Source: an uncultured bacterium (GTDB lineage: Bacteria > Omnitrophota > Omnitrophia > Omnitrophales > Aquincolibacteriaceae). From it: 64,000 nt of DNA. This document shows positions 9,361-59,496 of the stretch, one piece after another. Under the pieces are notes generated by a model, which saw only the letters and a list, made by a program, of their open reading frames with translations, did not search any database and was not told the DNA's origin. The translations under genes were made by a program, and so were the position numbers. The stretch is from contig CAYSSX010000001.1 of assembly GCA_964434115.1 (NCBI GenBank), positions 329,459 to 393,458 of the forward strand, given 5' to 3'. Position 1 is the first letter of the stretch; each line of letters starts with the position of its first letter.

Positions 9361-10203
9361 TTACGCCGCGGATTCGACGGCTTTGCGGGAAAGGAATTCG
9401 GTGATAAACCGCTGCAAGTTACCGCGGTCAATGGACAGAACGCCGTCTCCGTCCATCTGCAAAAAGGACGGCCCTTCGTACTGGCCGCCCTTCAGAAGCG
9501 CGGCCCAGACTTTCTTCAAAATCTCGGCCCGGTCCTCCGGGTTCTTTTTCAGGCGCTCGGCCGTGCCCGCAAAATGCGAAGTCAGAAGCGCGCCCGAGAG
9601 CATCGCGATGAGCGCCGCGCTTTCAAAGCCGTCATCCGTCCCCGCCTCCCCCAGCAAGGTCACGGCAAAAGCACTGGCGTTACCCTGAAGCCGGGCCGCG
9701 TTCTCGGGGCTTGAAATCACCGGCATGCTTTCACCGTTGGAAAGCGAGAAACGCGCGCGGTAATTTGCCGGGTCATTCAAGGTTTCAAGCGGAATCCCCT
9801 CCGTATCCAGGAGGGACAAATCCATGCGCTTGGAAACGAGCAGGGTTTCAAAGCGCCCTTTCAAGGCCGGGTTTTCCTCGAGCACACGCCCCAAGGCAAT
9901 CTCTTCCCCCGGGACATCCAGAACCGCGCCCAGTTTTTCTGTTTGCAGAACACTTAACGCGTCCACAAACCAGCCCTGCGCAAAAGCCGCAAGGCGGCTG
10001 TCCATTTTAGGAGGCGCGGCCGTTTCCGAAACAGCGGCTTTCTTTTCCGCCGCCAAACGAACGCCTTCAAGTCTCAGCTCCGCGGCCAAATCCTCCAGAC
10101 CGACCTCTTGGACAACCGCGGCAACCCCGGAGGCCACCCTTTGCGACTGATTCGGATTAAAACCGTTTGAAACCAGGCCCTCGGCAAGCTGATGCGCAAG
10201 ATC
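9361..10203 (-). other. Conserved C-terminal module of giant protein 1 (~280 aa, ends ...AVESAA)
   Basis: Homologous to the C-terminus of giant 2: VVQEVGLEDLAAELRLEGVRLAAEKKAAVSE vs VVRTVLEDLALGRNLRREAAAVLAEKAQRQMPAVES, and GTAERLKKNP...FLSRKAVESAA vs TRITAERLKKLS...FSANRLIQSAA. Confidence 0.75.
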
Positions 10204-13200
10204 ACGGAGTTCGGAACGCGGTTCTTCACCCCGCTCCGCGGCAAGGGCCGTAAGACTGGCCAAGGCCGCTGCCGCAGCTTCCCGAAGGTGCTGTTCAGGG
10301 GCTTGCTCGGCCAGATGTGTGAGTTCGTCAAGGATCTCCTGTCTTGTATCCCCTAAAGCCCCAAGGGCAAGAATAGCATCCTCCACAACAAGGAGGTCGA
10401 CGGGATTCTCGTCATCCGTCAAAATTTTCAAAACTGAGGGCGCTGCGCGCACGGCTGCGGGGCCCATGATGGTTAAACCCATGATGGCAAAATTAAGATT
10501 GAGTCCATGCAGACTGGGAGTTTCCAAAACGTGAACGAGTGCGTCCATGCCGAGATCCAAACCGCCTGCCCCCTGAAAACCAATGAGGTGCACTAAATTT
10601 CCATACTCGCCTGGATAGGCTTCGGCCTGCTGAAGCAGTTCCACCATTCTCGGCACCGTGCTATGGGCGAAAAAACGAAACGGCAAAAGTCCTAAAACTC
10701 CCGCAAACCGTGCAGCGTTCGGCGCCATCAAGAGATTGATTTCATTCTGAATGATCTCAGCACGGTTTGGCGCCTGAATAAAGTTCAAATACTCTGCGGC
10801 GTTAAGGCGGTGCATTTCAAGAGGTCCATTTTCTTCAAGTTCCGGATATATGTCCGTGTGCGCTTCCACGAGGACCTCGGAACTGGTGATCGTATCCTCC
10901 TCCAATCCTGTAAAATCTTTCCCTGAAAGGGCACGCGCGCGTGTCACGCCAAGAGCCATCAGAGCAGAAACCAAACGACGGTCCCTTCTCTGACCGCCAT
11001 CCGCTCTCATCCATTGCCTCAGGCCGGACAAAAGCTGGGTACGAAGTCCGGCTTCTTTTGCGAATTCAAAAGAAAGGGCCGGACCCAGGTAAGCGATCCC
11101 AAGCGCGGCCAAAAGGGCATTGGGACGGTATTCGGAATCCAGAAGCGCGCGCGCGTACAGTCCAAGCCCGGTGTCTTCGAGTTCCTGAGGCAGACCCATC
11201 GCCGGATAAGTCGTCCGAATACGGTCGATGAGCGCCGTGATCCGGGCAAAAATTTCCGTATCCGGAAACGTCGAAATTCCCGCGCGCAGCCTTTGCAGGC
11301 TGGCCCGGATTTCTCCAGAGTCTGGCTGAGCGGCCAACGAGGCGCTGAGTGAATCAACCACCATTTCAAGAACCGCTTTTTGGTCTTCCGTAAAAGCAGC
11401 GCGCAGTTCAGAACGGGCCTCGCCTCTTTCGCGGGAAAGTCCAGTCAGGCTATCGAGGGCCCGATCCGCGGCCTGCCTGACACTTTCGCTCCGGGAGTCT
11501 TCGGAAAGGAGCGAAAGCGCTGCCAAAACATTCCTGTTTGTGTTGCCCAGGGCAGCCAAAGCGTCTACGGCGCTCGTCATCAAAGTCTCATCTAAAACAG
11601 CCGCTCCGCTCAGCAAAGGTAAAACCTGAGGCGCAGCTCTTGAAGCTGCGGGACCCGACATCGTCAAAGCTTTTAAAACGTTTCCCAGCAGGCTTGGATT
11701 GTCCCGAGAGTTTTGCAGAATTCGCAGGAGCTCATCCAGCCCCTGATCTATCCCGCCCGCGCCCTGATGCCCAATCAGTTCAATCAAGTGCTGATGAGCA
11801 GCCGGATAAGCTTCGGGATGCTGCAAAAAGAACACAGCAATTGGGACAACCGAGTAAGCAAGAAACCGGTAAGGCGTCAGCTGAAAATGAATTCCAAAAT
11901 TAGCCGGCTGCTCGGCAAGACGGTTCCGGAGGTTCTGCACGGCCACGGAGCGGTCTGGGCGCTGAAAAAAGCGGAGGTAATCAGAAGCTGTCATTGGCGC
12001 CACGCCAAACAGGTTTTCATCGGCGCCTGAGAAACGGCTGCCTGTAAATGCTTCCCTGACAGGGATACCCAGAGCAATCTTTGCCATGACGAAGCGGCGG
12101 TCGACTTCCTGCCCCGCTGTTGCCATCAAAGCATCAAGCCTCTGAAGGAGCTCGCCGCGAAGCCGCGAATCATTTGTAAATTCAAAAGAAAGGGCCGGAC
12201 CCAGGTAAGCGATCCCAAGCGCGGCCAAAAGGACATTGGGACGGTATTCGGAATCCAGAAGCGCGCGCGCGTACAGTCCAAGCCCTGTGTCTTCAAGCTC
12301 TTCAGGCAAAGCCATCGCGGGGTACGTACTGCGGATACGGTCAAGAGCCACCGCCATTCTTGCGAAAATTTCAGAGTCGGGAAAATTTCCAAGCCCATCG
12401 CGCAATCTTTCGAGGCTGGCACGGATTTCTTCAGACCCGGGCTGAGACGCCAGAGAAGCATTGAGCGAATCTGCAACCAGCCCGATGACCGCTTTTTGAT
12501 CCGCCGTAAAAGCAGCTCTGAGTTCAGAGCGGGACAGCTCACCAGAATCCCCCCCCCTCTCTTCCAAAAGCCCCTTTAAAGACGCCAGGGCATTCCTAGA
12601 AAAATAACGCACCGACTCCTGAGTGTCTTTCTCAGCCGCCTCTTTAAGCGCATCGAGTATAAACTCCGATGTGTTTCCGATAGCCCCCAAGGTTTCTGCT
12701 GCAAGGAAACGCACCCCTTCCTCTTCATCGTTCATTCGGCTTTGGAGCACCCGAACAACCTCCAGGGATGCTTTGCTTCCTGCGGGTCCCATGCCCAAAA
12801 TCATTGTCAGGGCCGCTTCTATCATCCCAAGGCTTGAATCCTGGTTCACCAGAATAGAAATGGCCTCATCCAGTCCCCTTTCGACGGAACCAGGACCTGC
12901 CAAGGACAAAAGTTGCAAGAGATGCAGGGGCGCGCCGCGATACAGCGGGGTCTGGGCATGGCTTAATTCGATAATGCCGGCAACTGCTTGCGGGGCCATA
13001 AAGCGGTAGCGGGCGATCTGAAGAATCGCCTCATAATGGTGATCGGCCATTCTAAGCCTTGCGAGTTGCTGCTGAATCCGGCCGCTGCGTTCAGGAGAAA
13101 GAATAAGATTGAACCATTCCTCTTTTTGCAGCTCCCTGAGGCGTGGTCCTGCGGGGTTGAGAAGCGTCTCATCTTCGATGAGCGGCCTTTGATCCGCATT

Positions 13201-16200
13201 AAAGGCGCCGAGAAGATGCTGCTCGGCCGAATCAGTCGCGTTTTCCAGAGAGCCCGAAAACTTTCCAAATGCATGCACACTTTTCAATGGAACACCGAGC
13301 GCCAGCATCGCAGCCATAACGGACCGGTCTTTTCCGTCAGAGTGGGACGCCAAGGATTGAAGCTCCGTCAGAAGCTTTTCCCGAAGCCCAGGAACGGCTG
13401 AAAATTCAAGATCAAGGGCCGGTCCGAGATAAGCAATCCCGTGAGCCCCCAAAAACTGAGTCGGCCGATGCTGCGACATCAAGGAGTCAAGAGCATACTG
13501 GCCGAGCCCCGCGGATTCCATTTCCTGGGGCAGAGGCACCTGCTGGAAATCACTGCGAATCCGGTAAATCAACGCGGTAAATCGTGCAAATATTTCCGCG
13601 TCGGGAAAATCCCTCATACCGGAAATAAGCTCATTGAAACCGGCAACAAGGGCATCAGAGCCCGGCTGATTAGCAATGCCTGACCGAGCCCATTCAGAAA
13701 CCATTGATAAAACCGATTTTTGCTCCAGACTGAAAGCGGCACGAAGTTCAGAACGGTTTTCACTTCCGGGTCCGGGCAAGGCGAGAGGCGGTTCTCCGGA
13801 ATCCGGCAACACCGTAGCTATCGCGCTCCTCCTGCCGCTCAAGGCCTCCCGCTGCTCCTCAAGCGACTGCCGCGTTTTTTCCGCCATGTAATTCTTGAGG
13901 TGTTTCAAGTATTCCGGGTGACGGGTTTTCACGGTTTCCATAAAACCAAAACGGGCATCCGCCTCAATTCCAAGCGCGGCCATAGACTGAACCACGGAGG
14001 CATGGGTCTCCGGGCGGAGCATGGGGATAAGTGCGATCAATTCCATGTCCTCTTCTGGAGACAGTCTCGCGGCCAAAAGCGCGTCGAGCGCCCATTCGAG
14101 ATTTCTTTCGCTCTGGTACAGCGGCCGGGATAAATCGTTTTCATAAAGATCCCCAAGCCAGTGATTGCTCGCCATAGCATGATCTGAAAAGGCCTTTTGA
14201 AACAGTCCCTTCTTTTGCATCGGCGTCAAATACCGGCTCTCCCCGATTGAAATAATGACCACGGGAATTCCCCGCCGGGCCTTGCCGTTAAAAAAATTCA
14301 TCCCCTGCGCTGACAAACTTTGATAAAGACCATAAGCATCGTCCGGACTGAGCGGGATACCTCCGAGCAGCGCCCCCATCTCCGTAATCAAATAGGCGGA
14401 GGTCTCACCCCTGGGTTTAGGAATCTGATGAGTCAGAAGATTCAGGAGGTCCCGGTTAAAGTCTTCGCCCAGCCCCCATCGCGCAAGCCCTCTAAAAACA
14501 TCTTCCATCTCCATCTCCAGGCGATAGGCCCCCTTATAATCTTCCCTTTTAATCCGCCCATAGGCCTGCGCCCATCCGCCGCCCCATTCAAGAAGCTTCT
14601 TTTTCCGGTCTGCAGCGGTAAGCCCCTCTAGCTCCTGAAGAAAATCTGACCGGGTTTCCGACGGCCCCAGTGTACGAACACTTTCCTCATCGATAATCGT
14701 CACGGGCTGTTTCATCTGGTCTGCATAAAGCTGGGCCGCGTGGGGACGCCCCATCCGGGTCATGAGTTCTGCCAAACGCTGAAGTTCACTATCGCCAAGA
14801 TTCAGGCGCGGAATCAAGCGTATATGCCCGGTCCCCGTGGTCCCTTCGAGCCCCCCCATTTCAAAAGCGCTGAGATTCCGGTAACCGGCCGTAATAATTT
14901 CTTCGTTCATTTCGGGTGGAAGCTTGGCCTGGACAAGCGAAAAGAAAAGGTCCTGCGGCGCGTACCCATAAAGGTCGCGGCTGAAAGATTCGGACAGAAG
15001 GTTCCGGTACACCGCAGAACTTTGCGTATAGAAAAGAAAGAGCCCCTTCTTCTGTTCCGGGCTCAGGTTCAGACGCCCGGTCATACGCACGAGCCGCGTG
15101 ACTTCAACGCTGCGCGTGAAGGCCTTTTTCACGGCGCCCAGAATGTCAGAATCCTGCGGCGCCTTGCCAAGAAGTCCAAGGGCCGCTCCATTCACCCGGC
15201 TGTCGGGATCCATAATTCCCAAACTCAAATAGCGGTCCGCGTCCGCGCCCTGAAGCCATTGAGCGCCATTCTCCAGGCCTTTAAAAACCGCCTGCTTGAC
15301 TTCCGGCGGCTGGGCGGCCGAAAGGTAGCCGTCGGCAAAAGCAATACCTGCGGCGTAATCCGAAGCCAAAAGCACTTGCAAGTGGACTTCAATTTGATCC
15401 AGAGAAGGAAGCACACTTTCTATCTCGGAAACTAAAGCCCCCTCCAATCCGCCGGCATGATAGGGCATCAGTTCAGAAGACGCGGCCGTCGAGACTGTCT
15501 GATAATCAGCCCCTCCCGCGGGGGCTTGCCCGGCTTGAGCCGCAGAAACGCCTGCCTTTTCATACTTGGAAAGACGCTCACGGGCCGTGTCATCGATAGG
15601 AATAAGGTCTCTGAAGAAGTTTTCAAACTCAAGGGCTTGACCTTCCGTGAGGCCTCCCGGGTTAAATAAAAGCGGCGGGATGAATTTCTCGAAAGCCTTT
15701 TGTTTGCCCCCCGCGAGAAACGAACCGGCCAAACTCCTCCAGTCATAAAACTGCAGCCCAAACACCTGTCCGCTGGGTCCCAGAAGGCCCGTGGCGCGAA
15801 AAGCACGCACCCTGCCTGAGTCATCCAAAAGTTCCGGAGAGTCATCGTCAAAATAGAACCTCTCCGCGGCCCCTTCTTTAATAATTTGGGCCTTAAAATC
15901 GATTTCGCTCTTATCCTGGAAACGAACCTTGATTTCGCCGGGCTTCCCTTTCACGTCTCCGATTTCACGGAAAAAGCGCAGGATACCGCGGCGGGTCACG
16001 ATCAAATGAAACCCCGCGGAACCGACCGACATCAAATCACCCCGGTATTCGTCCGAGCGAAAACCGTAGGCGCGGCGCTGATAACCGGAAGGGAAAATGT
16101 TATCATCGGGATGGTTATGCAGATTGGAAGAAATCGTGTTTTTTCCGGGAAACATGGCGCTCACACTGCTCTCATTCCCCTTCAAGATCACAATCTGTTC

Positions 16201-19200
16201 GCCCCTGTTAAATAGATTCACTTCAAACGGCAGCTCTGCAATGTTTCTCAGATCCACCAATGTCGGCTGCGGCACATACGCGTAGAACCCCTGATCGTCA
16301 TTTTCTGAAAACTTCTCCAAAACCTGGCGGATCGAAAGCTGATCACCCAAAAAACGCTCGGCTTTGAGAATTTCAGAAGCGCTGCCAACGTGATTTGTGG
16401 AAGCCCTGATCAAATGCTGAAAAACAAGGCGGCGGACGCTGGGGTTGTGGTGCTTCAAAAGCTGACGTACCAGGTCATTCCCTTCGGGCGTGTTATAACG
16501 CAGAATGTTGGGCACAATTTCTTCCCCCCCATTATTGACGAGAAAGGCAGAGGCAACCCCTTCTGCATCAAGACGCCCCAAACGCTGACGGACGTAAGGT
16601 TCGTATCCTTCCGGCAAGCGGCGCGAAAGAAGAAAATAAGCCAGATGCTGGCGGGCGCGCCGGTCGAGCTGGGCATACGTGCCAGGCTGCAGCATAACCT
16701 CCAGAACTGACAGGGAAAATTCCACACCCCGCTCTACATGCTGGTTGAACCAGTGAAGATCCACACTTCCGCTTTTCCTTCTCACATCACGCATGGCGGC
16801 ATTAAACTTGACCCTGTCGACACCTTTCTGAATAACGTTTCCGATCCTGGCCAGAAGGCCGCCCGGCTTCGAAGGCTGTGCCCCCCCCGGCACCATGGCT
16901 CCTTCGCCTGGCCCGGGGACGGCAGGTAATCCAGGCTCATCATCCTGCATAGCCCTTAATTCGGAACGCGGGAAGCCCCCCTTCAGCACGTAAATCTGGG
17001 AAGCCTCGTCGGGATTATGATTCGTGACGGTGACACGGCCGTTTGCATACTGCACTTCAAAGTGCTGCTTCCCGAGCTCCAGGTTAACACGGTTCGGCTT
17101 TATCGCTCTCGGCCTGTGGCCCTGGGCCTGGACGTACAAACGGCCTTCGCTCACGTGAAAACCAATCACCGGATCCGAACCGTAATCAATCCGGAAAGGT
17201 CCGTCGTAAAAAAACTGCAGCTTCCCGCCGTCCCCTTCCACAAAATTTCTAGGCTGCAGCACTAGGCTGTGCTCGGGCTGAACGCTTTCCAGAATTTCGG
17301 AAGCTTCTTGATCATCCGCAAGACTCTGCTCATCCTGGCTGAGAGGTTCCTTGGGGGCCTTTTTCCGGGGCGAAGGCACGAGCCGTTCTTCGACATGAAA
17401 ACCGTTGGTCGACCCCTGGTTTTGTAGAATGACAAAATCCTGCCCTCCCAGAACATCCGTCATCAGCATCAAGTGGCCGGGACGAACAAAGTCCTCGATC
17501 TGGTGCGGGAGCCATCCTTTGGGCGCTGCTGGAGCCTGGGCGGCTTCGGCTTTATCAAGATCAATCGTGATGCGGTCTGCGGCGCCGGGATCGTCCGCCG
17601 CGCTCCGGGAAATCCGCGTGATCTGTGTAATGGTTTCCGGGCGGTCCGGTGAAATCATGTTTGGCAGGTAGTAATTCCTGACCAGGCCGTTTTCGTCCTT
17701 CCAGGAAATCACAACGGCCGACCGGCCATCCCGGATTTCCCCTGATTCATCCAGCTGAGAGGCCGCATCAAGCTGTTCACTTTTGTTTAAAAACAAATCA
17801 AACAGGCCCGGCAGTGAAACATGGCTGGTTTTGCTCCGGTAAATAAAAAGAGGCTGCCCATCATGGATTTCAACATCGTCGAGTTTTCTCCATTTTCCCT
17901 CCCCTTTCTCGTTGGCCAGGAAAACCTCCAAAAGATATTTGGGAGACGCGGCACCCACCAGCGCCCCGCCGGACTGCGAACTTTCACGCTCCGCCTGCAG
18001 GGATTCAGGAAAACGGACCATCCGGAAAGTCAGATTTCCAAGCTGGAACCTTCCCATATCTTCAAATGGGTATGCCCGGGTCTTTTTGAAAAAGAATTCC
18101 GTAACGCCCTTGGAAACAGATCTCGCATAGGTCCTGGAACTAAACCCCGGCACTTTCCCAAAATCCGCGGGGGCGGCAATAAAACGGTAAGACTCAGCCT
18201 CTTCTTCACTGCGCAATTCAGAGCGCAGCGCATCCTGCCCGCGCTTCACGGCCTCACGCAGCGTCGTGATGGGACGAACCTGCAGCGGGATAATACGGTT
18301 GTCGGCGTCGATGGAAAACTCAACGTCCACCGGGTAGCCGAAATAAGCTGAAAAGCCGTCCACAACCGCGGCTACGGCCAGCTGCTGTTCCCGCGTCAAG
18401 GAACTCTGACTCCGAAGCGCTTCGTCGTTTGCAATCACCGCATACCCCCCGGACTCAAAATCCAGGACCACTTTTTCCTGCTTCTGTCCGATATGCTCCC
18501 TCTGAAATTGATACGACTGGCCTTTGGCCGAAGGTTTCGAAATAAGAAAATAATCCGGGTCTTTGACGGTCTGGTCCACAAGGCCTTTGGCAAGACCATG
18601 GGCCGCTTCAATGCGTACCACCGAAAGGTCCCGTGAAGCGGTGTCCGCGCTAAAGGCCGTGCCGGAAGTCTTGGGGTTGATCATTTCGTCGATCAGAATA
18701 CTTTCCGCACCGGAGGCCCAGACATCCCGAACAGCCGCAAAAAGACCGGCTGTCCCGGTCACGTTTAACTTCGTTTCCTTCATTCCCGCCATCGCTTCTT
18801 CTTCACTGTCTTCTTTCAAACCGGACGAACGCACCGCCACAGCCCCCAGAACCCGGAGACGGTTCGCAAGAGAAACGGAAATGGCCTGAGGGAGGTATAT
18901 TGAAAGAAATGAGACGGTGAAATTCCGAAGCAGGTTCACGAGTCCGTCGATCACAACCGGATCCTCGGCAGCGCGCAAAGCATTCAGCGCAGGTTCCAGG
19001 ATTTTCTTTTCCAGATCTTGCTTGATGCCCGCTGCCGTCCTGTCATCTGCTTCGATCAATTTCAAAACAGACTCAATCTGTTTGACGGTGAGATCCCGGT
19101 AGGCCAAAGCTAGAGTCCTTTTGAGATCTTCTTCCAGATCTCCCTGCGTCTTGAACCAGCGTTCATATTCTGCAGGCTGAATCGCGAAGCCCTGGGGCGC

Positions 19201-22200
19201 TTCAACCTGGAAACCGGCCGGGATTTTATTCTGGGATTTCAGGAATTCAATGGCATGCAGGGTTTCCGCGGAGTTGGAGCCTTTGCCGCCCGCAAGAGGG
19301 CGAGAAAAGCGGTCTTTCAAATCGCTTTTCCAGAGAATCCCGAGTCCCTGAAGAGCTTTGACTTCATTTTCCCGCTCACCGCGGAGCGTCAGAGTCCGGC
19401 TTTCGAGTTCCTGCAAATCCCCTGAAAGTCCCATGGCGTCCAAAACCTGATCCGGAGCGCCCACCGCGCCGGCACGCAGAATCAGGGAGCGGTAACTGAG
19501 CAGCATGGATAATTCATGGGCCGGAAACTGGGCAGCACGTGTGAGAAAATCCCGGATCCCGTAAAAAAGGGCCTGGAGATAAATACGAATCTGCCTGTGT
19601 GCCGTTTCGCGGACCGAAACCTTGCCCGCTTCAATTTCTTTGGCCGTAATGCGTCCCTGCCAGGTGCCATTGGCAAGCGCAATCATTCCCTGAAGACTGT
19701 CAGCGCGGGACATAAAACGTTCGACATCAAGGTAGAGTGCATCCAGTCCGGCTGGAGACTGCGCCAGAGGGCTTTTCAACCGGGCGAGAAGATCCGCCAG
19801 CCCCTTTTCAAAATTGTCGACTTCATTTCCCGCGCGCCCCCGCAGAAAATCTTTCACGATTCCCTGGAGATCCTTCCGGTCTCCAAGCGCCTCCATCAGG
19901 CGGCTCAGCGACTCCGGGCTGAGAAGATTGGAATCCAGCAGTTCGTCGAGGATGGCGCGAAAAAGACTTTCACTGTCGAGAGTTTTAAAGAGTTTCTCAA
20001 GCGGCGCAAGATCAATGACCGCCCCTTCCGCAGCCTGCTGTCCCTGGCGCGCGGCCTCATACCCGCTTTGATTTTTCCAATCAAGAAAGGCCTGGAAATC
20101 AGCCAGTGTTTTTCCTCCGGCTTCCCCAGCTTCGGCAATCACATACAGCGTGCCTTCACGGGCATCCAGATAGACAAGATCGCCTTCCCGGATCGTATGG
20201 GTTTTTTGATTGCCTGCCTTCAATTCATAATAGGAAAGGGTCCGGCCTTTGAAGTCGATCTGCGTTTCAGAAGCATAATCGCTGTAACCTTCGAAAGAGA
20301 AACCTTCGGGGGTAATTCTCGCTGTGTTAAAAATACTGCCTGGTTTCCGGTTCTCTCCCGCACGGACGGAACCGTGCGATTGAACACCCCCCGTGGTCAT
20401 AACGATCCCCAGGGAAGCAAAAAGATGAGGATCATCCGTATTGTCCGCGCTTTCCCCGATCCAAAGCGCTCCCCGGAAATCTTCCGGTGAACGTCCTTCC
20501 TTTTTAAAGCGGGCCACTGCCAGCGTCTTTCCCGGCTGCACAGACAGACCGCCGATCGAAAGCGGGCTTACGGCGTGACGGGCCGTGCTTTTCTCAAAAA
20601 GACCTTCCGGGTCAAACACACCTTTTACCTGCGCCACAGAGTTCACGGCTTCCTCGGATGAAACCGAAGCATCCAGCGAGGATTGACCGGGCGCGGTTTC
20701 CACACTGCGCGCTTTCAAAAGTTCCCGGCCCGCATGTGTCTGTCCAAACCCATGAAGTTTCAAAAGCTCCAAAAGCCCTTCGCTGCTGAGATGGTTGCCG
20801 TTCAGTTTGATCCCGCGCGCCCTGTCATACGTCTGTTCCGGAGAATAGAACCGGCCCAGGTACGCGGCACCTCCGTAATAAGCCTGGCTCTCCGGGTCTT
20901 TGATCAGATCAATGGTGAGGTCTTCATAGAGAAGCGGAATCACAATCCTTTCCACTTCATAGCGCCCCACCGACGCAAGCACACGGTGTTCGGCAAACGG
21001 ACGAATCATCAGCGCCAGCGCTGCCGTCTGCCGGGCATCCAGGGAAAGTCCGCCGTCGGCCCCCTCCGGAAAAAGGTTTTGAAGAAGCGCCTCTACCGGT
21101 GAGCGGAGCGCCGCTTCTTGAAAGGACACTGAAAAGCCCAGGGTCCCGCCCGGGGCATAAACGGCTTCACTGCGGTCCGCGGCCTGTTGAAGGCGGCGGC
21201 TGAGCCTGTCGAGAAAACGCTGTCCGGTTCCCTCCAAAGGCACATTAAATTCCTTCCCAACACCTTTCCAGTGGGCAAGGTCCGGACGCGGGGCCTGAAG
21301 CATGAAAGGCACGCCGCTGTCACGGACAAGGAAGCCGTCTTCCGAGAAACGCTCCGCGATTTTTTCAGCCGCCTGACCGGGATTTGTTTTCAGGGAATCT
21401 GTTTCATTGATCCTCAGGTCAAGATCCTTGGTCGAAGTCAGCGCCTGAATCGCAAATTCCAGTTTTTCGATCATCTCGGCCAGAGAGCTGGCATTGGAGT
21501 CTTTATCGAAAGAGGCATCCAGCGTGTAACCGACCTTGCGCACCTTAAACCCCGCAGCCGTGAAGGCCGCGGCGAGAGAATCAATGCGGATATTGCTCCC
21601 CGGCGCGTAATAACTTCCGCTGTCTGTGTAGTTGATAAACAGCCGCCCTGTCTCCTGAACCGGAGCCAGGGAAAGCTGGATGCGCGCGCTGTGCACCCCC
21701 AAAGGAAGGTTGATCAAGGCCCGGTTTTCGGTGGAAAGGATGACGGCATCCTTGACCGGAAAAAGAAGATTGTTGCGGTGGATCAACTGCCCCTTGGCCA
21801 AGGCTACGGCCGCAAGTTTCACCGGAAGCGGATGATTGCTGTCCGGGGCTGAGCGGGCATCCAGATAAGAAAATGGAACGTTCAGCAAAGGTCCCAAAGC
21901 GCCGCCCGTCCCTTTCTGATTGAGCAGAACCGCTCCCTGAGCCGCGCTGCCGTCCGAAGGAAAAAGAGTCGAGAGATTGCGCACGCCTTTTTGGTGAACA
22001 ATATTGACGAGTTCGTGAAAGCTGGTTCCCTTGATCGCATCATAGCGGGCGGTTTCCTTGGCAATGCCGCCCAGGACCTGCTGCTGATACTGACGGTACT
22101 CAGCGTAAGTCACGCCTTTGATCAGGGCCGGATGATCTTTTTCTGTTTGCTCGGCGGGCGTGAGGATAAGCGAGGCTGAAGAACGGGCATCGAGTTCCTG

Positions 22201-30507: not shown

Positions 30508-30516
30508 GGATTTTTT

Positions 30517-35332: not shown

Positions 35333-35355
35333 GCCGCGGTTTGAGGCAGGCTGTT

Positions 35356-41922: not shown

Positions 41923-41928
41923 ACCTCT

Positions 41929-42480
41929 TCAGAAATCTTTTAAAAAACGGACCGCGGCTTCCGGATCTTCCGCCGCGTGGTAAAAACTCCTGTATTCAGC
42001 GCGCGCGAAATTCTCAGTAATCATCTTCTCAAAAAAAACCAGCAGCGGATCAAAGTACCCCGCCGTATTAATCAAAACCACCGGCTTCGCGTGGTACTTC
42101 AGCTGTTTCAGGGCCAGCGATTCCGCAAGTTCATCCAAGGACCCCAGCCCCCCGGGAAGACAGACGATCGCGTCTGAACATTGCTGCATACGGGCCTTGC
42201 GTTCATGCAGGTCCCGGGACACGACAAGTTCGTGGCAATCCCCATACGCCATGCCTTTTGTGTTCATCTTTTCAGGAATCACGCCGGTGATCCGCGCCCC
42301 GGCCTGAAGCGCGGCTCTTGCCAGGATTCCCATCAAGCCCGAATCCGTGCCTCCGAAAACAAGCTCGCATCCTTCACGTCCCAGGGTTTCGCCCAGCTGT
42401 CGCGCCGCGGTTTGATAGACCGCCGCGACTTCAACGCTGGAGGAACAGAAAACGAGTACTTTTTTACCTTTAAGATTCAT
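41929..42480 (-). CDS. LOG family protein (cytokinin riboside 5'-monophosphate phosphoribohydrolase-like, TIGR00730)
   Basis: GGTDSGLMG and PGGLGSLDEL (PGGxGTxxE-like) motifs. Confidence 0.85.
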   Translation of the reverse strand: MNLKGKKVLVFCSSSVEVAAVYQTAARQLGETLGREGCELVFGGTDSGLMGILARAALQAGARITGVIPEKMNTKGMAYGDCHELVVSRDLHERKARMQQCSDAIVCLPGGLGSLDELAESLALKQLKYHAKPVVLINTAGYFDPLLVFFEKMITENFARAEYRSFYHAAEDPEAAVRFLKDF

Positions 42481-42516
42481 CGGAAGTCCCGGGGGTTTTG
42501 AACGCTGGGGATTTTA

Positions 42517-43323: not shown

Positions 43324-43332
43324 CGTCTCCGC

Positions 43333-46321: not shown

Positions 46322-47374
46322 TTAGACAGGTGCCGCAAGGGCCCGGGACACGAGAAGGCTGTTGAGATGGTGCCCTTCTGAAAAGAGGTCCGCGAGGTAG
46401 CGGTCATACTTGTCGGACTTGGTGGTGCGGATCAAGACCCCTTCCGGGGCTTGCAGCCGGGCTTCCAGAAACTTCTTGGCCCGCCGCCCCGCCTCACTGC
46501 CCTGCTCAGGGGCATTGATGCCGCGCAGGCGCAGTTTCTGGCGAGTGAAAACTCCGAACCCAAGATCCACCTGCATCCAAACCGTGTCCCCATCCACCAC
46601 CCGTTCACAGAAGGCCCGGTAAAAATACAGGTCCGCCTCGCGGGCACCGTTGACACGGCTCATGGAGTAGTCGGCAGTGCCTGTGCCGCCTGTTTTTTTC
46701 TGGGAATAAACAATCTCTTCTGAAAAAAAACGTTTTGAGCTGGACGGCAATTCAAGGTACGTGGAAAAACCAAGGTCAATCAAAAGGCCGTCAGGGTTCG
46801 CGCCCGGCGCCTGGCTCCGGAAAAGCCGGTAGCGGTAGGGTTCCCCGGGTTTGAGTTTCGTCAGCTTCCCCTGGGGTTCGTCCGGACGGCCGGAAGAGAG
46901 CTTCCTGTCACCCGCGGCGGCCTCTTCCAGACGCCGGCTGCTCCAGCCCCATTCTTCGGCCTGGGTTTCAAGTTCTTTGCGAGCGCCTTCATCCTTGACC
47001 GGCAGCAAGGCCCGGTAATGACTCCAGGTCAATTTTCCCGGCGCCGGGAAATTCTCGTACGCGCGGGCAAATTGCAGCGCGTAATAAAGCAGGGTCTGGT
47101 TGGTGTTCAGGTCCTCGGACAAGCGGCTCAAAACTTTTTTTCCGTAATCGCCCCGCTCCTGACTTTGCAGGACATGCGCGTCAATCAAGCGGCCCACTTC
47201 CCAATACGTCCGGGTCTTTTCCTGCTCCACGGCTTCCTGCGCGCGGCGGCGCCCGGATTCAAGGGCCTCGCCCACCTCTTTTTTCAAATTGGCGTAGGTA
47301 CGGACATCCAGATTTTTTGAACTTGGGCTCAGAGCTTTATTTTTACGGGAAACTGCGGGCAATGCGGGCATCAA
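46322..47374 (-). CDS. DUF1016 (YhcG) N-terminal domain fused to a thermonuclease (staphylococcal-nuclease-like) domain
   Basis: The N-terminal half carries YWEVGRLIDAHVLQ...YGKKVLSRLSEDL, typical of the DUF1016_N domain. The C-terminal half carries the SNase motifs VVDGDTVWM, LRLRGINAPE and KSDKYDRYLADL. Confidence 0.55.
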   Translation of the reverse strand: MMPALPAVSRKNKALSPSSKNLDVRTYANLKKEVGEALESGRRRAQEAVEQEKTRTYWEVGRLIDAHVLQSQERGDYGKKVLSRLSEDLNTNQTLLYYALQFARAYENFPAPGKLTWSHYRALLPVKDEGARKELETQAEEWGWSSRRLEEAAAGDRKLSSGRPDEPQGKLTKLKPGEPYRYRLFRSQAPGANPDGLLIDLGFSTYLELPSSSKRFFSEEIVYSQKKTGGTGTADYSMSRVNGAREADLYFYRAFCERVVDGDTVWMQVDLGFGVFTRQKLRLRGINAPEQGSEAGRRAKKFLEARLQAPEGVLIRTTKSDKYDRYLADLFSEGHHLNSLLVSRALAAPV

Positions 47375-47490: not shown

Positions 47491-48393
47491 TTAGGCCGCG
47501 CTCTGAATCAAGCGGTTGGCGGAGAACTTGAAGGCTATTTCGAGAACCAGACGCGTGATACGGAGACGGCTCCCCTGCATCTGGAGAATCCCCGGCAGAA
47601 ACTCGGACAGTTTTTTGAGACGTTCCGCCGTGATCCGCGTCTTCCCGTCTTCGGCCAGCATCCGGGAAAGCAGAATCACCACGGGCAGCTCCTCACCGGC
47701 TTCGACTTCCGAAAGGACCGCGCGTCCGGAGAAATCGGAAAGCAGTTCCGCGTCCGGGAGACCGTAGACCAGGGCGCTCCCGAACTCATGCAGGTAACCC
47801 GCCAGGGATGCCGACAAAACCGCCTCGTTCATCTCCACGGGCGTTGCCACGCCCAGACTTCCCGCTTCCTGGAAAAAATCTTTCACGGCCGGGTCCTCCA
47901 TTTCATGCTCGAGCACCATCACCTTGACTTTCGCGGTCAACTGGGAAGGAAACGCGTCCCGGAGGGCTCCGAGTGTTCTTAAATAATTCAGCAGCCCGGC
48001 GCGCGCCTTTTCACTGCGGGGCAGCCGGTAGCCAAAAGCAAAAACGAGTTTCTTGGAAGTGTCCGCGCTCAAAGCCTTACGCACATCCCTTTCAAAACCG
48101 GCGAGCAGTTCCTGATAAAAAGCCGTTTGGGCCGTATCGTAATCGGGGTGCACTTCCTGGACATCCTCGGCCGCGGCCCGCCGTGGTTCCGATCCCGCGC
48201 TGAGAAGACTCGCGTAATGGGGATCCTGTCCCTGCTCACGCAAAGCCGATTCTACGGCCGGCATTTGACGCTGCGCCTTTTCGGCCAGCACGGCGGCTGC
48301 CTCCCGCCGCAGATTTCTTCCAAGGGCCAGGTCTTCAAGAACCGTCCGAACAACGTCCTGAAGCGCCTCGGCGCCGGTGTCTCCGCCGGACAA
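47491..48393 (-). other. Conserved C-terminal module of giant protein 2 (~300 aa, ends ...RLIQSAA)
   Basis: Paralogous to 9361..10203 (see that feature). Confidence 0.75.
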
Positions 48394-51300
48394 GCGCAGT
48401 TCGGAGCGCGCCTTGGCCTGCTCGGATTGCTTTTTCAACGCTTCGTAAATCTCCCGGTGTTCATCCACCAGCAGTTTCAGACTCCCCGAAAGAAGGCCGT
48501 GATAATCCTGGGTCAGGGTTTCAAAAAACGGCATGCTGAAGAAAAATCCCCGGGAAATTTCATCCAGGTTAATCGCCAGAGAAGCCTTTTCCTCATCATC
48601 CAGAATGTAGGCGTAAATCGTGACCCACTCCCGGTTCACCAGCCCGCCCTGAAATGATTCCCGGGGAAAACCGTTGGGCGGCGAAAGCAGAAGCAGCTTT
48701 TCGGGTTTGATTTTCAAACGGATTTCCTCTTCGGTTTCGCGGATCGCGGCCTGAATCCTCGACTCTCCAAGGTTCACGTGTCCGCCGGCCGAGACTTGAA
48801 GTTTTCCCGGCGACATATCTTTATTCATGCTTCTTTCCTGTAAAAAAAGCTTTCCGTTTTTGTCAAACACATAGACCTGCGTGACCGCGTGCCACTCGCC
48901 TTCCTGATGCGCCTTCAGCTTGCTCTGTCCGACAGCCGTAAGAAACTCTCCCGTGGCCGGATCCACGTACTGAAGAATCTCATCCGCGTGCGTGTACAGC
49001 TGATGAAAACTGCGGTCCAAAGTTTCCGTTTCCGGATGATCCGGAAGAGCGCGGAGCTCAGCGCGGCTGGCCTGGGAAAGCGTGCCTCCTGCGGCAATAT
49101 TCGAAACGCTCAAACGCCGGGAATTTCCCCGCTTCGGAACCGGACCGCCGCCCTTGCCCTTGGGCCTTACCACAGCGTTCGGAGAAAGCGCGAGCTCTGT
49201 GATGGTGAAAACACCCTTGGGCGTTTTTCCGGCTTTTTCAATTTCGAAAACCAGTGCGATTTTTGCGGTCTTCACGCCTTTCAAGGGCAAGGAGGAAAGA
49301 TCCAGCACCAAGGCTTCCCCGGGCTTCGGGGCACTGACTTCTAGGGTTCCAAGAACTTTTCCTGCGGGAGAATCGTCACTCAATTCAATCTCGAACTTGT
49401 CCGGAAGCACCGACTCTTTGCTAAATGCGATGCGGAGGGATTTAAAGGCTTCCGCGTCAGCGGCCTTGAAGTTACCGGTAAATCCACTGAAGCGGTTCTT
49501 GTTATCAAGGCTGAAAGCGATCTGGATCGAGCCGTCCGTATTTTTCTTTTCCATGTTATCCGGGGCCTTTTCAAGGTTCGTAAACATCGCAATCCCGGTA
49601 AACGCGGCTAAAAGGTCCAGGTCTTTACGGTTCACGGCCGCGTAGCGCCGGTCAAAGGCCTGAAACTCGGCGGCAATGTCGGGGTAATCTTCCCACTCCG
49701 CCACCACGGCGCGGAGAAACGGCGCTCCAAGCGCTTCAAGAATGAGACCCTGATTCATATAAATGCGTTTTTCGTGATACGGCGCGCCGGTCTTGGGATT
49801 ATAGGAATCCCCAAGCCCCCACAATTCACGGTAACCGTTGCGCTTGGTCACCGCGCGCACAAAGGCCTCAGCATTGTCCACGGATTCCGGGACATCGCTA
49901 AGCAGCGCCAGAAAGGGTCCTGCCGCCACGAGCACCGAGGCATCTTTAAGACCGTAGACAGCATAGGAATCCGCTTTCTCTCCGCTGCCAGGCGCCGACA
50001 CAGCCGCAACGTGCGCTCCTTTTTTGGCCACGGCCCGCGCGGCCTGAAAGTAATTTTTAGAACTGACCGCAAGCACGGCAGGCGAAACCTTGGCCGGGTC
50101 TAAAAACTGCAGGCCTTCGTATTCGGTCCAGGCGGATAAATTGGCGTCTCCATTGCCGATCGGAACATCACCCGCCGTGCCGGCCGCTTCCACCCATTCG
50201 TGACGCAGTTTTTTGAGAACTTCCAGTCCCTGAGCGCGCCGCGTCTTGAAATCCTTTTCCGGGTCGCCAAGGACTTCCGGCATCAAGAAGAAATCCCTGG
50301 CCTCCGTATGACGGTTATCAATAAAGGATTCGTTCAGAGTCAGGCTTTTATCTGCCGGATTCACAAACACCTGGCTGCGGAGCCTGCCCTCTTTATCAAG
50401 AAAGCCGCGGTAGTCCGCCTTGGCAAGCAAGGCTTCGGCTTTTTTCACAATCGTTTCATCTTTAAGGCCGCGCACGTACCCGCCTTTGAAAACTTCGGCA
50501 AGCAATTTTAGCCTTACGTGCGTCAGCGCCATATCGTAGGCCGCATAAGCCACACCTGTCTGGCCTTCTTTGCCGGGGATTTTCATCAGCTCCGTCTTAA
50601 AAGGCTTCGCGGCACCTTCTTTTTCATAAACAAGCGTTTCAGGCAATAGCCCGGTGTTCACGCCGTTGATGCGCAGGCCGAACTGATCCACCATTTTTTC
50701 AAACATCTCAAGCGATTTTGTGATTCTTTCCGTGACCTTTTTGGGATCACTCAGGGCTCCCCGGTCGCCAATGGGAAAATTGGAATGGGACAAAGCCGCG
50801 AGCAGGTCTGCACTCCACATAAACCCGATGTCCGCGGAACGAAGCCATGTTCCCACGGGATTGCGCGGCGCTTCACCCTGGTTGTAGGGCATTCCCACCG
50901 GAGAACGCATGCTCAAAAGACTGATCTGCGTATCGCGGTAAACCGGGCGCAGCGTCATGCGCCGGAGAAACGGATTCACGGGAAGTTTGATCTGACGCGG
51001 CTGATCTGCCGGAGCCTTTTTCTGCTGAGCCGCGGCAGGTCCTGTCATTCCCGTCAAGGCCGAAAGCCCCGTGGCCGTGGCCGATACCCAGCGGATAAAA
51101 TCCCTGCGCGTGGGATCCTGGCCCTGGCTCCTTAACTCCGAACGGTGCGGAAACACTTTACCCAGGACCCAGTCCGGATTTCTCAGGATTCGGGACCGGG
51201 TTTCCTCCAGCCTGCGGCCGGCCGCCGAAAAATGGGCATGAAGATCATTGACCGTCTTCTGCTGCAAAAGTCCGCTTTCATTAAGCACGCCGTGCGACAT

Positions 51301-54300
51301 CAATCCTTGAAGAATCTCAAGCGAGCGCAGGACACTGGCCCTGTCGCGCCGTTCTGTCTGGATCCGCCAGTCCAGAAACTCAAGAATATCTCCCGGGTGA
51401 GCGGGGTTGGAATCATACGTTTCCTCTTCATCGAGACGTTCCAGAAGCCTTAAATACGCAAGCAGTGTCTCGATTTTCTCCTGCGGGACTTCGCTCTCTT
51501 CATACCAGGCGGCGATAAATTCACGAGGCAAAGACTGATAGGGCACCACAGCGTTCAGAAGCGTATTCCAGCGCCTTCCGGTTTTCTCGAGGGTTCTTGC
51601 GATGCGTTCCCGAACCTCTCTCATTTCCCGGACCGATGTAACCACCTGGGCACTGTACTGAAAAAGACCCATAACCAGAAGGACCAAAACTGCCGCGCTG
51701 TAGAATTCAAATCCCTGAACAATCATACTGACTGCCGTAAGCGAAAGGCCTGCGGACAGAGCAAGCCCCGTAAGTAAACCGGGCCGCATGACCTGCACTT
51801 TTAAAAACCGGTCGCGGTCCCTCAGCACGTGCTCCATGGCATCCTGCCACTGATCATCCAGCGTCACGTATGAAAAGTCCTCCCGCTCTGCACGAAGCTC
51901 CGAACGCACAGGCGCTTCTGACGGCAGATCAATCGTGAACACCGTGCCCTCGCCAGTTTTGGTTTCCACGGAGATCTTTCCGCCCAGGCTGTTTTCAATC
52001 GATTCTTTCGTGAGCGCCAAACCAAGACCTGAGCCCCGGCTGCCTTTGGTGGTGAACAACGGTTCAAAAATCCGGGGCAGGACATCCTCGGGGATTCCGG
52101 TGCCGTTATCCCGCACGGTTATGCGGAGCGCAAACTGACTTTCTTCAGAATCCAGGGATTCCATTTTGAGGGTAATGCGGCGGGGGCGTTCCGGCGGGTT
52201 ATCTTCCGTCGCGTGCGCCGCGTTAATCACAAGATTGCGCAGCGCGCGGTAGAGCTCAAGAGGATAGGTCCGGATAAAAACAAAGCTCCGCGTGGTTTCA
52301 CCTTCCACCACGGCCTCCCCCGTGCTCTCAAAACCGGACACAGCATCTCGCAGCAAGGTCAAAGGACGCAGCATTTTAAGCGCTTCAACCTCAAGCCCCA
52401 AGGGCTGCGCGGTGAATTGATAAACCCAAGCCGACTGGGTCACAAGCTGATCTGCCGCTTTCTCGGCCTTCGGGTGGGAAGATTTCCGGATGCGTTCGGC
52501 CTCGACTTGAATTTTATCCGCCGCGAAAAAATCCCGAAGATCCTGAAGGAGCTTGAGAACCACGGCCTCCTTTGCTGGACCCGGATTCATGCTGCGGGCC
52601 GATGAATACCGCGATTTGAGAGAGGCGTAAGGCTTATAGAAATCCGTTCCCATCACTTCTTCGACCTTGGAAGCGTTCAAAGGATCAATTGTCGAATCCA
52701 CCAGCTCCAGCAGAGACATAATGTTTCCAAGCTCATGAAGGATTTGCCCGCTCGGAAGTTCCCCTTCGATTCTCACCAAAGCTTCAAGCGGCGCGGCCTG
52801 CGCTGAATCCGGGTCGCGGATCTCCAGCTCTTCATCAATCCGGAAAGCCAGGTCCTTGGCAAAAGCCTTTTCAGCCTGCGCCGTCAAGGTTCCGTAATTT
52901 CCTAAAATGAACGCGGTCAAAATCATGGAAGCGACATCAAACCCCGCCCCTCTGGCCAAGGCATTCAAAGCAGTTTCGACGACTTTCGGGTCCGCGTTTT
53001 GATTAAAGATAAGGCTGATGAGCCGGTCCAGCGCCTCCTGGTTCGCGGCAAGCCCCCCAATGGCCCGGACCGCGGAACGCGCCACCTGAATCGTTCCCGG
53101 CTGCCGCAAAATTTCAGACAGCGACGCGAGATCGCCTTCCTTTTCAAAAACCTTGATCAGTCCCATCAGGATCAGCGCGGGCACTTCGTCCTTCCGGGCA
53201 ATCTCCCGCAGAACCGGCAGGGCTTCCGCGCGTTCCGCCGCGGGAAACTCCGCGAGTGTGCGGATCGCGGCGTAGCGGACTTTTTCGCTGGGGTGAATAA
53301 GCCCAAAAATAACCACTTCGAACAGCGTGTGATGAAGCTTGAGAGGGTTTTCACCGGACAAGACAAAACCGATCCGGTCCATCAGGCGGACAAGACTCCT
53401 TTCCACCCGGGGCCCGTCGCTCATCTGCCAATCATCCAGGTCTCTGACCATCGGGCCTTCTTTGATATTTTTCGGAACAAAGGTTTCATAAATCGTCAGG
53501 TGATCAAAAACTTCTTCGTCCTGACTCACCGCGTCATTCAGCGCGCTGACACGCCTCACGATTTCCGGATCCGTAATGTCGTCGCCTTCTTCCGCGGCCT
53601 TCCGGGCAAGCTCAATCAAATGCTGATTCCGGTCCTGCTCCGAGCGAAGTTCGGAGCGGGGCTTGGGCGTCTCGTCTCTCGGAAATACCTGCAGGCCGGA
53701 CGCCCGCGTGTCAGAAGAAAACTGCATTCTCTGCAGGTCCACGGTCATTCCCTGGATCTGACCATCCGGGTAGCGCACAAGACTGCGGACGCCGTTTTTT
53801 CCAAGGCGCCGGATAAGGGACCTGTGAAAGGCCTGGGCTTCGGGCGTTTTGTCGATGCCCCACTCCCCGCGGTTATTCACCGGACCGATCTGAAAAGTTT
53901 TAAACCCCTGATTTTTGAGCATCTGGAAAAGCCGCCGGGCCAAAACTATTCCCAGGCCGCTGCCGCGCAAAGCAGGATTCACGTACAAACCGTTCCCCTG
54001 CAGACTCAAGTTGTGCGTGTCGGCTTGAAAGGCCCAGGCCGCGGCAGGCTGCCCGCCCAGGTACGCGATAAACACATCATTTTCAATGTCCCAGCGAATC
54101 GACCCATCCGGATCCGCGTAACGGTCAAAAAATGCCCAGTCAGAAAAAAGATCGGATTTCTCCGCCCGCCCCAGCACAGGGTAAGGCGCTCTTAACCCGG
54201 CCAAAAAGAAAGGTTCATCCTGCGTAAAATCACTGCCCATCAGGCGGAACTCAACGCCGCTGCCGCGCACCGTTCTGCGCAGGGCCAGCCTTGCCTCTTC

Positions 54301-59496: not shown

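Follow-up and report, generated by a model that had tools for sequence, protein, structure and literature searches.

The window analyzed here, a stretch of 64,000 nucleotides from an uncultured bacterium of the Omnitrophota (family Aquincolibacteriaceae; assembly GCA_964434115.1, contig CAYSSX010000001.1, positions 329,459 to 393,458), contains two giant open reading frames (ORFs), denoted g1 and g2, the products of which are punctuated by a recurring pentapeptide, R-[S/A]-E-L-R in this genome and, more generally, R-[S/A]-E-x-R (R[SA]E.R as a search pattern) among relatives elsewhere. This motif is a short linear peptide signal located in flexible linkers between independently evolving modules, and its character as a peptide-level, family-specific, linker-located and orthologue-conserved signal was confirmed well beyond the window. 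The two proteins have their first ~600 residues in common (30% identity), which make up what is termed here the N-module; cargo modules and a terminal C-module follow, and the Pfam matches found across the pair (PPDK_N, HEAT, GNAT, HATPase_c and NUDIX) amount to multiple enzyme domains tiling one chain. Among the cargoes of g2 are a GNAT domain, HEAT repeats combined with a histidine-kinase ATPase and a Nudix module resembling isopentenyl diphosphate (IPP) isomerase (IDI-like), the rest being without recognized identity and, in some cases, containing transmembrane (TM)-like segments. Coordinates are collected in Table 1, where, as in the text, related proteins and loci from other genomes are referred to by handles starting with P or L.

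Table 1. Features of the two giant ORFs and the fifteen motif copies (window coordinates; aa, amino acid residues of the respective protein).
Feature	Coordinates	Strand	Remarks
Giant ORF g1, 6816 aa	9361..29811	-	Signal peptide and N-module, then four cargo modules (one of 3,192 aa), three HEAT/ARM modules in tandem and a C-module; syntenic orthologue P0018/L080
g1 Sec-type signal peptide, aa 1-31	29719..29811	-	
g1 N-module, aa 45-607	27991..29679	-	TIKI/erythromycin-esterase/ChaN/TraB-like alpha/beta core (predicted) with a long helical insertion
g1 D77-A-H79	29575..29583	-	Equivalent to E3900-x-H3902 of RRSP; invariant in alignment A1
g1 E107	29491..29493	-	28 residues after H79
g1 R423	28543..28545	-	Invariant
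g1 G448-G-F-H451	28459..28470	-	Second His motif
g1 PPDK_N/PEP-synthase ATP-grasp cargo, aa 3596-3859	18235..19026	-	
g1 three tandem homologous HEAT/ARM-type modules, aa 5353-5760, 5761-6132 and 6133-6531	10219..13755	-	
g1 C-module, aa 6532-6816	9364..10218	-	Profile begins at the motif; protein ends ...ESAA
Motif g1-1, aa 666, RSELR	27802..27816	-	In the disordered stretch behind the N-module; kept in P0018 (aa 665)
Motif g1-2, aa 3863	18211..18225	-	The PPDK_N/PEP-synthase ATP-grasp match ends 4-6 residues earlier; copy conserved in P0018, P0056 and P0067
Motif g1-3, aa 4282	16954..16968	-	Conserved in P0018 and L064 (31% identity)
Motif g1-4, aa 5353	13741..13755	-	Left-hand breakpoint of the insertion (three modules) that distinguishes g1 from the orthologue
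Motif g1-5, aa 5761	12517..12531	-	First residues of tandem HEAT/ARM module B
Motif g1-6, aa 6133	11401..11415	-	First residues of tandem HEAT/ARM module C
Motif g1-7, aa 6532	10204..10218	-	Where the last HEAT/ARM module meets the C-module; right-hand breakpoint of the same insertion
Giant ORF g2, 4001 aa	47491..59496	-	N-module, seven cargo modules, C-module
g2 N-module, aa 1-679	57460..59496	-	30% identical to that of g1; D78-A-H80, E109, GGFH 472-475
g2 GNAT acetyltransferase cargo, aa 1732-1873	53878..54303	-	
g2 HATPase_c histidine-kinase catalytic domain, aa 2412-2527	51916..52263	-	
g2 Nudix/IPP-isomerase-like cargo, aa 3538-3647	48556..48885	-	
g2 C-module, aa 3697-4001	47494..48408	-	Second C-module type; ends ...QSAA
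Motif g2-1, aa 680, RAELR	57445..57459	-	Just after the N-module
Motif g2-2, aa 884	56833..56847	-	
Motif g2-3, aa 1509, RAELR	54958..54972	-	
Motif g2-4, aa 1947	53644..53658	-	
Motif g2-5, aa 2531	51892..51906	-	4 residues past the HATPase_c match, where free-standing histidine kinases end; similar arrangement in P0072
Motif g2-6, aa 2785	51130..51144	-	
Motif g2-7, aa 3478, RAELR	49051..49065	-	Upstream of the Nudix/IDI-like module
Motif g2-8, aa 3697	48394..48408	-	Projected C-terminus of the IDI-like domain/start of the C-module

Seven of the copies lie in g1 and eight in g2, and a six-frame scan of the window revealed no R[SA]ELR beyond these 15, the composition-based expectation for the two proteins being 0.046 + 0.043 copies (~0.09); the initial annotation, which had reported 15 copies restricted to the two giants and far fewer than one expected by chance, was thus borne out on this point, as it was for most of the motif coordinates, four of the g2 starts having been placed one base off (the true ones being 57445, 56833, 51892 and 49051). 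The motif is all-or-none, in that each match to R[SA]E.R, R.ELR or R[SA].LR within g1 and g2 is one of the same 15 copies. It had also been proposed that the constraint acts on the peptide and not on a DNA site, and this holds: leucine is encoded by CTC, TTG, TTA, CTT and CTG and the last arginine by CGC, CGT, AGG and AGA among the copies, and relatives vary at the fourth residue while R, S/A, E and R stay fixed. The Nudix domain is indeed bracketed by two copies (at aa 3478 and 3697), and the copies do stand at module boundaries, albeit not at every one of them, as had been claimed, since aa 671-3862 of g1 are motif-free and aa 1947-2530 of g2 hold HEAT repeats together with a histidine-kinase core. 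The motif-free stretch of g1 (18226..27801) spans 3,192 residues, for which no Pfam or NCBIfam match was obtained save the terminal ATP-grasp domain, and the last ~1,500 residues of which form a unit common to P0056 and P0067.

When a profile of the N-module (alignment A1) was searched against a library of 1.84 billion proteins, 9,899 cluster representatives were recovered at E <= 1e-3, 6,907 of them at E <= 1e-30, and, among the 150 best matches listed, the N-module was situated at or near the N-terminus of proteins of up to ~8,000 residues. A scan of species-representative genomes yielded 320 relatives, and 79 loci were kept, nearly all from metagenome-assembled genomes (MAGs) of Candidatus Omnitrophota, often with several paralogues per genome; members of the family begin with a signal peptide followed by the conserved 600-residue N-module. 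In the 79 locus ORFs plus g1 and g2, R[SA]E.R occurs 370 times against 15.3 expected, and in 137 independent family proteins, each of at least 1,000 residues, 844 times against 28.4 expected, 97% of these proteins having at least one copy. Scrambled-order controls that are unable to coincide with the motif gave 12-23 matches in the set of 81 giants and the R->K or E->D variants 8-13, while the control R.E[SA]R gave 93, many of which are true motif copies with A or S at position four, and R[^SA]E.R gave 84, near its own higher expectation. ORFs flanking the giants contain 41 copies, 37 of them in other giant ORFs, so that some 4 remain in ~150,000 residues of ordinary genes; this is chance level (~4 observed versus ~7 expected, a difference with no statistical power to indicate depletion) and agrees with the motif being confined to the giant-protein family. 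Across this family, the fourth residue follows the order L > V > A > M > T > I > S, with a single variant used throughout some of the proteins; L011 has a relaxed [KRQH][STA]ELR, repeated eight times, and L014, L047, L051 and L075 have no recognizable punctuation. A description of the motif was also sought, and none was found in such literature as could be searched, the text matches for RSELR or RSExR being unrelated, in keeping with the earlier impression that it is apparently undescribed. The motif set compiled in this way comprises ~1,200 sites in the ~230 proteins covered, from a family of ~9,900 clusters.

The signal is confined to the five residues themselves, because the flanks are uninformative: a logo of 368 sites has an information content of ~0 beyond the motif, with mild biases only (Pro/Ser/Ala/Gly at -3 to -1, Ser/Ala/Thr at +5 and acidic residues at +6 to +10), and none of the tripeptides in the flanks accounts for more than 0.7% of 1,226 sites. 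Alanine takes the place of serine at the second position in 25% of sites. The first copy is usually found at about aa 650-760, directly past the N-module, and the last one at a median of 287 residues from the C-terminus, the median spacing of ~310 residues corresponding to approximately one copy per module; a secondary class of doublets 5-50 residues apart is common. Some doublets, rare at ~8 of the 1,226 sites, enclose short peptides conserved across proteins (P..N.LG.Q..FGTG and LA...PSTAQ.VRPSAS; P0021 aa 760-796, P0030 2781-2801, P0036 1698-1718, P0051 3703-3723, P0056 1685-1725 and P0040 2709-2731), which resemble spacers or released peptides.

Several lines of evidence bear on the earlier expectation that the motif falls in linkers and not inside folded domains, and all of them agree with it. 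The hydrophobic fraction, which is 0.326 +/- 0.002 at random sites, drops, as an average over 1,189 sites, from 0.325 to 0.25-0.26 at distances of up to ten residues from the motif, and this hydrophilic dip extends ~30 residues upstream and only ~10 residues downstream, an asymmetry that places the motif where the following module begins. AlphaFold assigns a predicted local distance difference test (pLDDT) value of ~30 to residues 608-680 in its model of the g1 N-module, the first copy (aa 666) being among them, and the copy at 6532, in a second model covering g1 aa 6133-6816, coincides with a coil and a pLDDT dip (~54) between the HEAT/ARM module and the C-module. Furthermore, Pfam and PDB matches (HATPase_c, PPDK_N, IDI-like) stop 0-6 residues before a copy: the HATPase_c match of g2 ends at 2527 and the motif starts at 2531, the ending being that of free-standing histidine kinases; that of P0072 ends at 3223 with the motif starting at 3222; the PEP-synthase ATP-grasp match of g1 ends at 3856-3859 with the motif at 3863; and the projected C-terminus of the IPP-isomerase-like Nudix domain of g2 lies at about aa 3694 with the motif at 3697.

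Comparison with relatives indicates what the motif delimits. P0018, a protein of 5604 residues, is a collinear syntenic orthologue of g1 at 55% identity, the gene order PMT glycosyltransferase, small ORFs, DUF4202 and giant being common to both (29896..33216 of the window and 769..4743 of L080, assembly GCA_020049755.1). At the four copies common to the two proteins, 20 of 20 motif residues are identical, whereas the flanks of +/-15 residues are 40% identical and partly unalignable; in modules that are only ~30% identical (P0056, P0067 and L064), the motif is likewise kept at the aligned position. Conservation in orthologous giants, which the initial annotation had named as a check on itself, is thereby found both in P0018 and in distant homologous modules, and the motif is, as a peptide, strongly constrained by purifying selection. 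Compared with P0018, g1 contains three additional modules (aa 5353-6531), and the insertion starts and stops exactly at motif copies, the same upstream linker in P0018 being followed by one RSELR and then directly by the C-module; the difference represents a recent gain or loss of whole modules. The three are tandem homologues (36-50% identity), each starting at the R of the motif. When members are compared with one another, 50% of the high-scoring segment pairs (HSPs) start no more than 30 residues downstream of a motif, versus 14% for randomized positions. Taken together, the insertion breakpoints, the tandem starts, the HSP starts and the conserved sites show that the motif delimits units of duplication, insertion and loss.

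Some of these comparisons are less telling or had to be discarded. A BLASTP self-comparison of g1 and g2 had given the impression of there being no internal repeats, which proved to be an artefact of HSP culling, as direct comparison yields the three tandem modules. The fraction of HSPs crossing a motif (27.8% versus 33.9% for random positions) is uninformative because collinear homologues span several modules. In pairwise BLAST, 73 of 438 motifs were aligned exactly to a partner motif, the failures being mostly in gap-rich linkers past the N-module, and this low pairing does not amount to loss of the sites, because anchored comparison with true homologues finds them conserved.

The N-module is, as judged from its predicted structure, a TIKI/EreA-superfamily domain with putative hydrolase activity. 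The fold matches include Bcr135/136-like "succinoglycan biosynthesis" proteins 2qgm and 2rad (8.9), EreC (8.8), HopBA1 (8.7), a TraB-family protein (8.7), ChaN (7.9) and the MARTX effector RRSP (7.1), all of them belonging to the TIKI/EreA superfamily, and the model has the parallel beta-sheet flanked by helices that is the core of TIKI/EreA/ChaN/TraB proteins. The catalytic set of the superfamily consists of two His and two Glu residues (2His/2Glu), namely E3900, H3902, E3930 and H4030 in RRSP, with H85 and E113 being the corresponding pair named for Bcr135, and RRSP itself is a sequence-specific endopeptidase of this superfamily, Tiki being described as a representative TIKI protease (PMC6254334). 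A set of this type can be recognized in the N-module, where a His and a Glu stand ~28 residues apart, a spacing that in g1 is the same as in RRSP (H3902/E3930) and Bcr135 (H85/E113), and a second His is found in GxxH, the first acidic residue being Asp and not Glu. In the model, D77, H79, E107, R423 and GGFH451 all fall at strand ends, and the positions of D77/H79/E107/R423/H451 read D-H-E-R-H in 232 of 236 family members. Members without the canonical motif (L011, L014, L047, L051, L053 and L075; P0034, P0043 and P0126) all keep these catalytic-type residues.

Pfam searches of g1 aa 1-3417 yielded no family at E <= 0.01 (thus no TraB, Erythro_esteras or Cofac_haem_bdg match for the N-module), and the N-module profile had only chance-level matches, at E >= 0.1, among PDB sequences; because there is no sequence-level match, the assignment rests on predicted fold and residue pattern. 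The domain further differs from the rest of the superfamily in having a ~280-residue helical insertion between its two halves, in the first Glu being replaced by Asp, and in always being fused to a tail of several thousand residues. It goes unrecognized by Pfam and NCBIfam in spite of representing a family of ~9,900 clusters.

A single conserved C-module, as assumed by the initial annotation, does not exist: the C-modules of g1 and g2 share only their last ~50 residues (g1 aa 6767-6816, 9364..9513; g2 aa 3952-4001, 47494..47643; related with an hhalign probability of 86%) and the ...SAA-COOH ending. The g1-type C-module is the extreme C-terminus of at least 27 other giants. Nearly all complete members (P0011-P0155) end in ...[K/Q/S/E]-[A/S]-A-COOH, which looks like a recognition or sorting signature, and, of 167 complete members, 25 have an R[SA]E.R resembling the motif at a distance of 8-10 residues from their C-terminal end. 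A homologue search with the C-terminal 684 residues of g1 found nothing, and a fold search with the C-module was swamped by HEAT/ARM matches to the neighboring module.

A strict pentapeptide with uninformative flanks, residing in disordered linkers at about one copy per module, often redundant and conserved amid drifting surroundings, is what would be expected of a recognition site read by a protein. The reading favored here, held with roughly even confidence, is that R-[S/A]-E-x-R marks where a bacterial polyprotein is processed endoproteolytically, possibly by its own N-module. Family members consist of a signal peptide, the N-module, a series of motif-cargo units, a last motif and a C-module of ~290 residues; according to such a scheme, the giant would be made as one exported or membrane-inserted polyprotein, and the chain would then be cut at each motif into the N-module, enzyme or scaffold cargoes and the C-module. 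The N-terminal TIKI/EreA-superfamily domain is the leading candidate for the protease because no other enzyme domain is common to all members. A reader encoded in cis would also fit the motif variants being more uniform within a protein than among paralogues of the same genome (summed permutation p = 0.0015, one genome driving most of the effect). L015 (JBAYGD010000007.1) uses RAEAR at all six of its sites (aa 1332-3822), the C-terminal tail ...ARAEARAKVSA included; its modules are mutually non-homologous and other giants of the same MAG use other variants, a pattern that suggests protein-specific co-evolution of the sites. As to the bond, a cut behind the final Arg would give products that begin mostly with a small residue (Ser/Ala/Thr/Gly at +5), and one before the fourth residue, by which every product in this genome would begin with Leu, seems less likely. 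A more ambitious version of the proposal, to be entertained tentatively and quite possibly overdrawn, is that these are true bacterial polyproteins in which the N-module, a new branch of TIKI/EreA proteins, is a sequence-specific endopeptidase cutting its own chain at every R-[S/A]-E-x-R and thus freeing enzymes, HEAT scaffolds and occasional doublet peptides, with the C-module and the ...[A/S]A-COOH tail acting as a common terminal handling signal; maturation of this kind would be akin to that of viral polyproteins, transferred to a cell.

A number of observations weigh against processing by the N-module. Cleavage per se, the bond that is cut and the enzyme responsible are all things that we infer. 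Some 3-10% of the members are without a canonical motif and yet keep all the catalytic residues, and the TIKI/EreA superfamily also holds esterases and a haem-binding protein. In the AlphaFold model, the first motif is not docked to the N-module. A crude hydropathy topology of members with internal TM segments puts the motifs equally on both sides of the membrane, which is awkward for a protease confined to a single compartment. The motif at g1 aa 6532 forms the first turn of a helix (residues 399-415 of the model of aa 6133-6816) straight after the coil, so that a structural role is possible. Finally, a co-conserved protease gene, which the initial annotation had suggested looking for, was not found beside the giants at the loci examined, where the conserved neighbors are housekeeping genes (an SNF transporter, transaldolase/PGI, an amidase, an HflX-like GTPase, PFOR, MurJ and MiaA), those in the window being similar. 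P0072, which uses RSELR throughout, does have cargo that includes a Peptidase_M48 (HtpX/Ste24-like) domain (aa 981-1055), besides an ABC1 kinase-like domain; a protease cargo is therefore present in some members and is not universal.

Much of the evidence on the sites would also be accounted for if the motif were never cut and served as an exposed docking peptide, bound by a partner (the HEAT/ARM modules themselves, a chaperone or an export/insertion factor) that would give the bead-like modules of an intact giant a defined arrangement or pass them to a machine in turn: the five-residue signal, the uninformative flanks, the linker position, the doublets and the one copy per module are all compatible with this. 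The three HEAT/ARM modules of g1 have importins and designed armadillo proteins, which bind extended basic peptides, among their closest structural matches, HEAT repeats are reported to be the commonest domain of Omnitrophota giants, and a motif-like sequence as near the C-terminus as 8-10 residues is easier to reconcile with a tail for binding than with a site of cleavage. Docking is nevertheless judged unlikely, if a serious contender, as many motif-bearing members are without a HEAT/ARM Pfam match (P0110 having none at all), no partner emerged from the analysis, and one site per module with tandem sites 5-10 residues apart is more typical of processing. The helix-start position just mentioned, along with the acidic enrichment at +6 to +10, Pro/Gly/Ser at -3 to -1 and the asymmetric hydrophilic dip that puts the motif at the start of the next module, could instead be taken to mean that no trans-acting reader is involved and the motif is a structural connector, that is, a helix-capping insulator allowing modules to fold independently and co-translationally. 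Four invariant positions, two arginines among them, surrounded by unconstrained flanks go far beyond the needs of a helix cap, however, and the putative N-cap Ser is Ala in a quarter of the sites; nor would a connector explain tandem copies 5-10 residues apart and copies in segments with a pLDDT of ~30, and the family-specific, all-or-none pattern implies a reader, all of which makes this explanation rather improbable.

The same replacement of Ser by Ala, extending to all six sites of L015, is a difficulty with the motif being a site of post-translational modification (phosphorylation of the Ser by a basophilic kinase or modification of the arginines) that regulates the modules, and it leaves R, E and R, not the modifiable Ser, as the invariant residues; such regulation is thus considered very improbable, even though the R-S-E context resembles a kinase consensus and ABC1, histidine-kinase ATPase and FHA domains are found in members. 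Least credible of all is a signal at the level of nucleic acid (a recombination hotspot, an internal translation signal or the remnant of a former intergenic region) or an artefact of composition or ancestry. Breakpoints of module gain and loss do fall at the motif, and a repeated 15 nucleotides could serve as microhomology, but codons differ freely, the fourth residue varies while the peptide pattern holds, scrambled controls and other reading frames are at background, and the unrelated flanks mean that the copies are not inherited duplicates; synonymous codon variation together with a 30-fold enrichment over composition in non-homologous modules essentially refutes it.

Set against known systems, the giants have their closest functional analogues in the MARTX toxins and in viral polyproteins, being members of neither class. 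MARTX toxins release their modules by cutting at short sites in unstructured inter-domain linkers, the modules being shuffled between relatives. The giants resemble them in being giant secreted proteins, conserved in their N- and C-terminal regions and diverse in the enzyme cargo they carry, with variable modules joined by linkers that contain a conserved motif (cleavage being putative here), and the MARTX cargo RRSP shares the TIKI fold with the N-module. Dissimilarities are plentiful, though: searches of g1 and g2 with Pfam and NCBIfam detected no RTX/glycine-rich repeats and no C80 cysteine protease (Peptidase_C80) or other peptidase domain, a Sec-type signal peptide takes the place of type I secretion, R[SA]ExR is a strict pentapeptide whereas the MARTX site is Leu plus a small residue, the cargo is made up of HEAT scaffolds and enzymes of metabolic or signalling type, and the TIKI-like domain is the constant N-terminal part and not a cargo. 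With viral polyproteins (processed by picornavirus 3C, potyvirus NIa or coronavirus Mpro) the giants have in common one long product and a short, conserved, recognition-type sequence at the module junctions, and the co-evolution of an in-chain protease with its sites that is seen in those viruses has a hint of a counterpart here. Unlike them, the giants are encoded by cellular, chromosomal and syntenic genes, and the candidate TIKI/EreA fold of the putative cleaving enzyme is unrelated to the chymotrypsin-like and papain-like ones. Among bacteria, the P97/P102 adhesins of Mycoplasma hyopneumoniae are processed at an S/T-X-F|X-D/E motif, and a short recurrent motif in disordered regions of large bacterial surface proteins is the point of resemblance; the motif and the phylum are different, and P97/P102 have far fewer sites per protein and no modular enzyme cargo.

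The proteins nearest in kind are the giants already described from Omnitrophota, a phylum encoding the longest proteins known, as 'Archaeovorins' and 'multi-enzyme metabolic cluster' giants (West-Roberts 2023 bioRxiv 10.1101/2023.11.21.568195; 2026 bioRxiv 10.64898/2026.06.07.730766). The phylum of the relatives, the cargoes (HEAT, HATPase_c, GNAT, NUDIX and PPDK) and the bias towards signal peptides and TM segments are shared, and g1 and g2 have, like class 1 of the latter catalogue, several enzyme Pfams in one chain with a signal peptide and/or TM segments. The published giants are, however, at least 10-30 thousand residues long, and the 6816 and 4001 residues of g1 and g2 (6.8 and 4.0 thousand) fall below the 10,000-residue threshold of that catalogue (10.64898/2026.06.07.730766). 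Neither paper (10.1101/2023.11.21.568195; 10.64898/2026.06.07.730766) mentions a punctuation motif, a common N-module or a C-terminal signature, and in both the cleavage points are given as unknown, which, according to the main one, blocked structural analysis. A proteomic dataset for Ca. Velamenicoccus archaeovorus is named in PMC12583861 (PRIDE PXD025008).

To the question of how chains of such length work, the motif brings the first concrete, explicit and testable candidate cut points for Omnitrophota giants, as well as a principled basis on which to split them into modules for structure prediction and annotation. The family becomes definable by its common N-module, C-module and C-terminal signature, and a domain, with specific residues within it, is nominated for mutagenesis. 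What is described is apparently a hitherto undescribed, family-wide punctuation signal of the polyprotein/multi-effector type, cleavage being a well-motivated hypothesis; should it be confirmed, polyproteins would prove to be in widespread use among cellular organisms, and a protease that is sequence-specific would have been newly matched with its site.

The two paralogues of the window differ in one more respect. Hydropathy alone predicts five TM-like segments within cargo modules of g2 (at about aa 740, 1231, 1299, 2575 and 2601) and, at the same cut-off, nothing but the N-terminal signal peptide in g1, a laxer cut-off adding a weak segment near aa 5860, so that, on this prediction, their membrane topologies would differ greatly. 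Directly downstream of g2 lies a gene for a fusion of DUF1016_N with a staphylococcal nuclease (46322..47374), the region between the giants (41080..46221) encodes two response regulators and a PAS hybrid histidine kinase with an Hpt domain, and a myo-inositol-1-phosphate synthase gene (60181..61293) is located upstream of g2.

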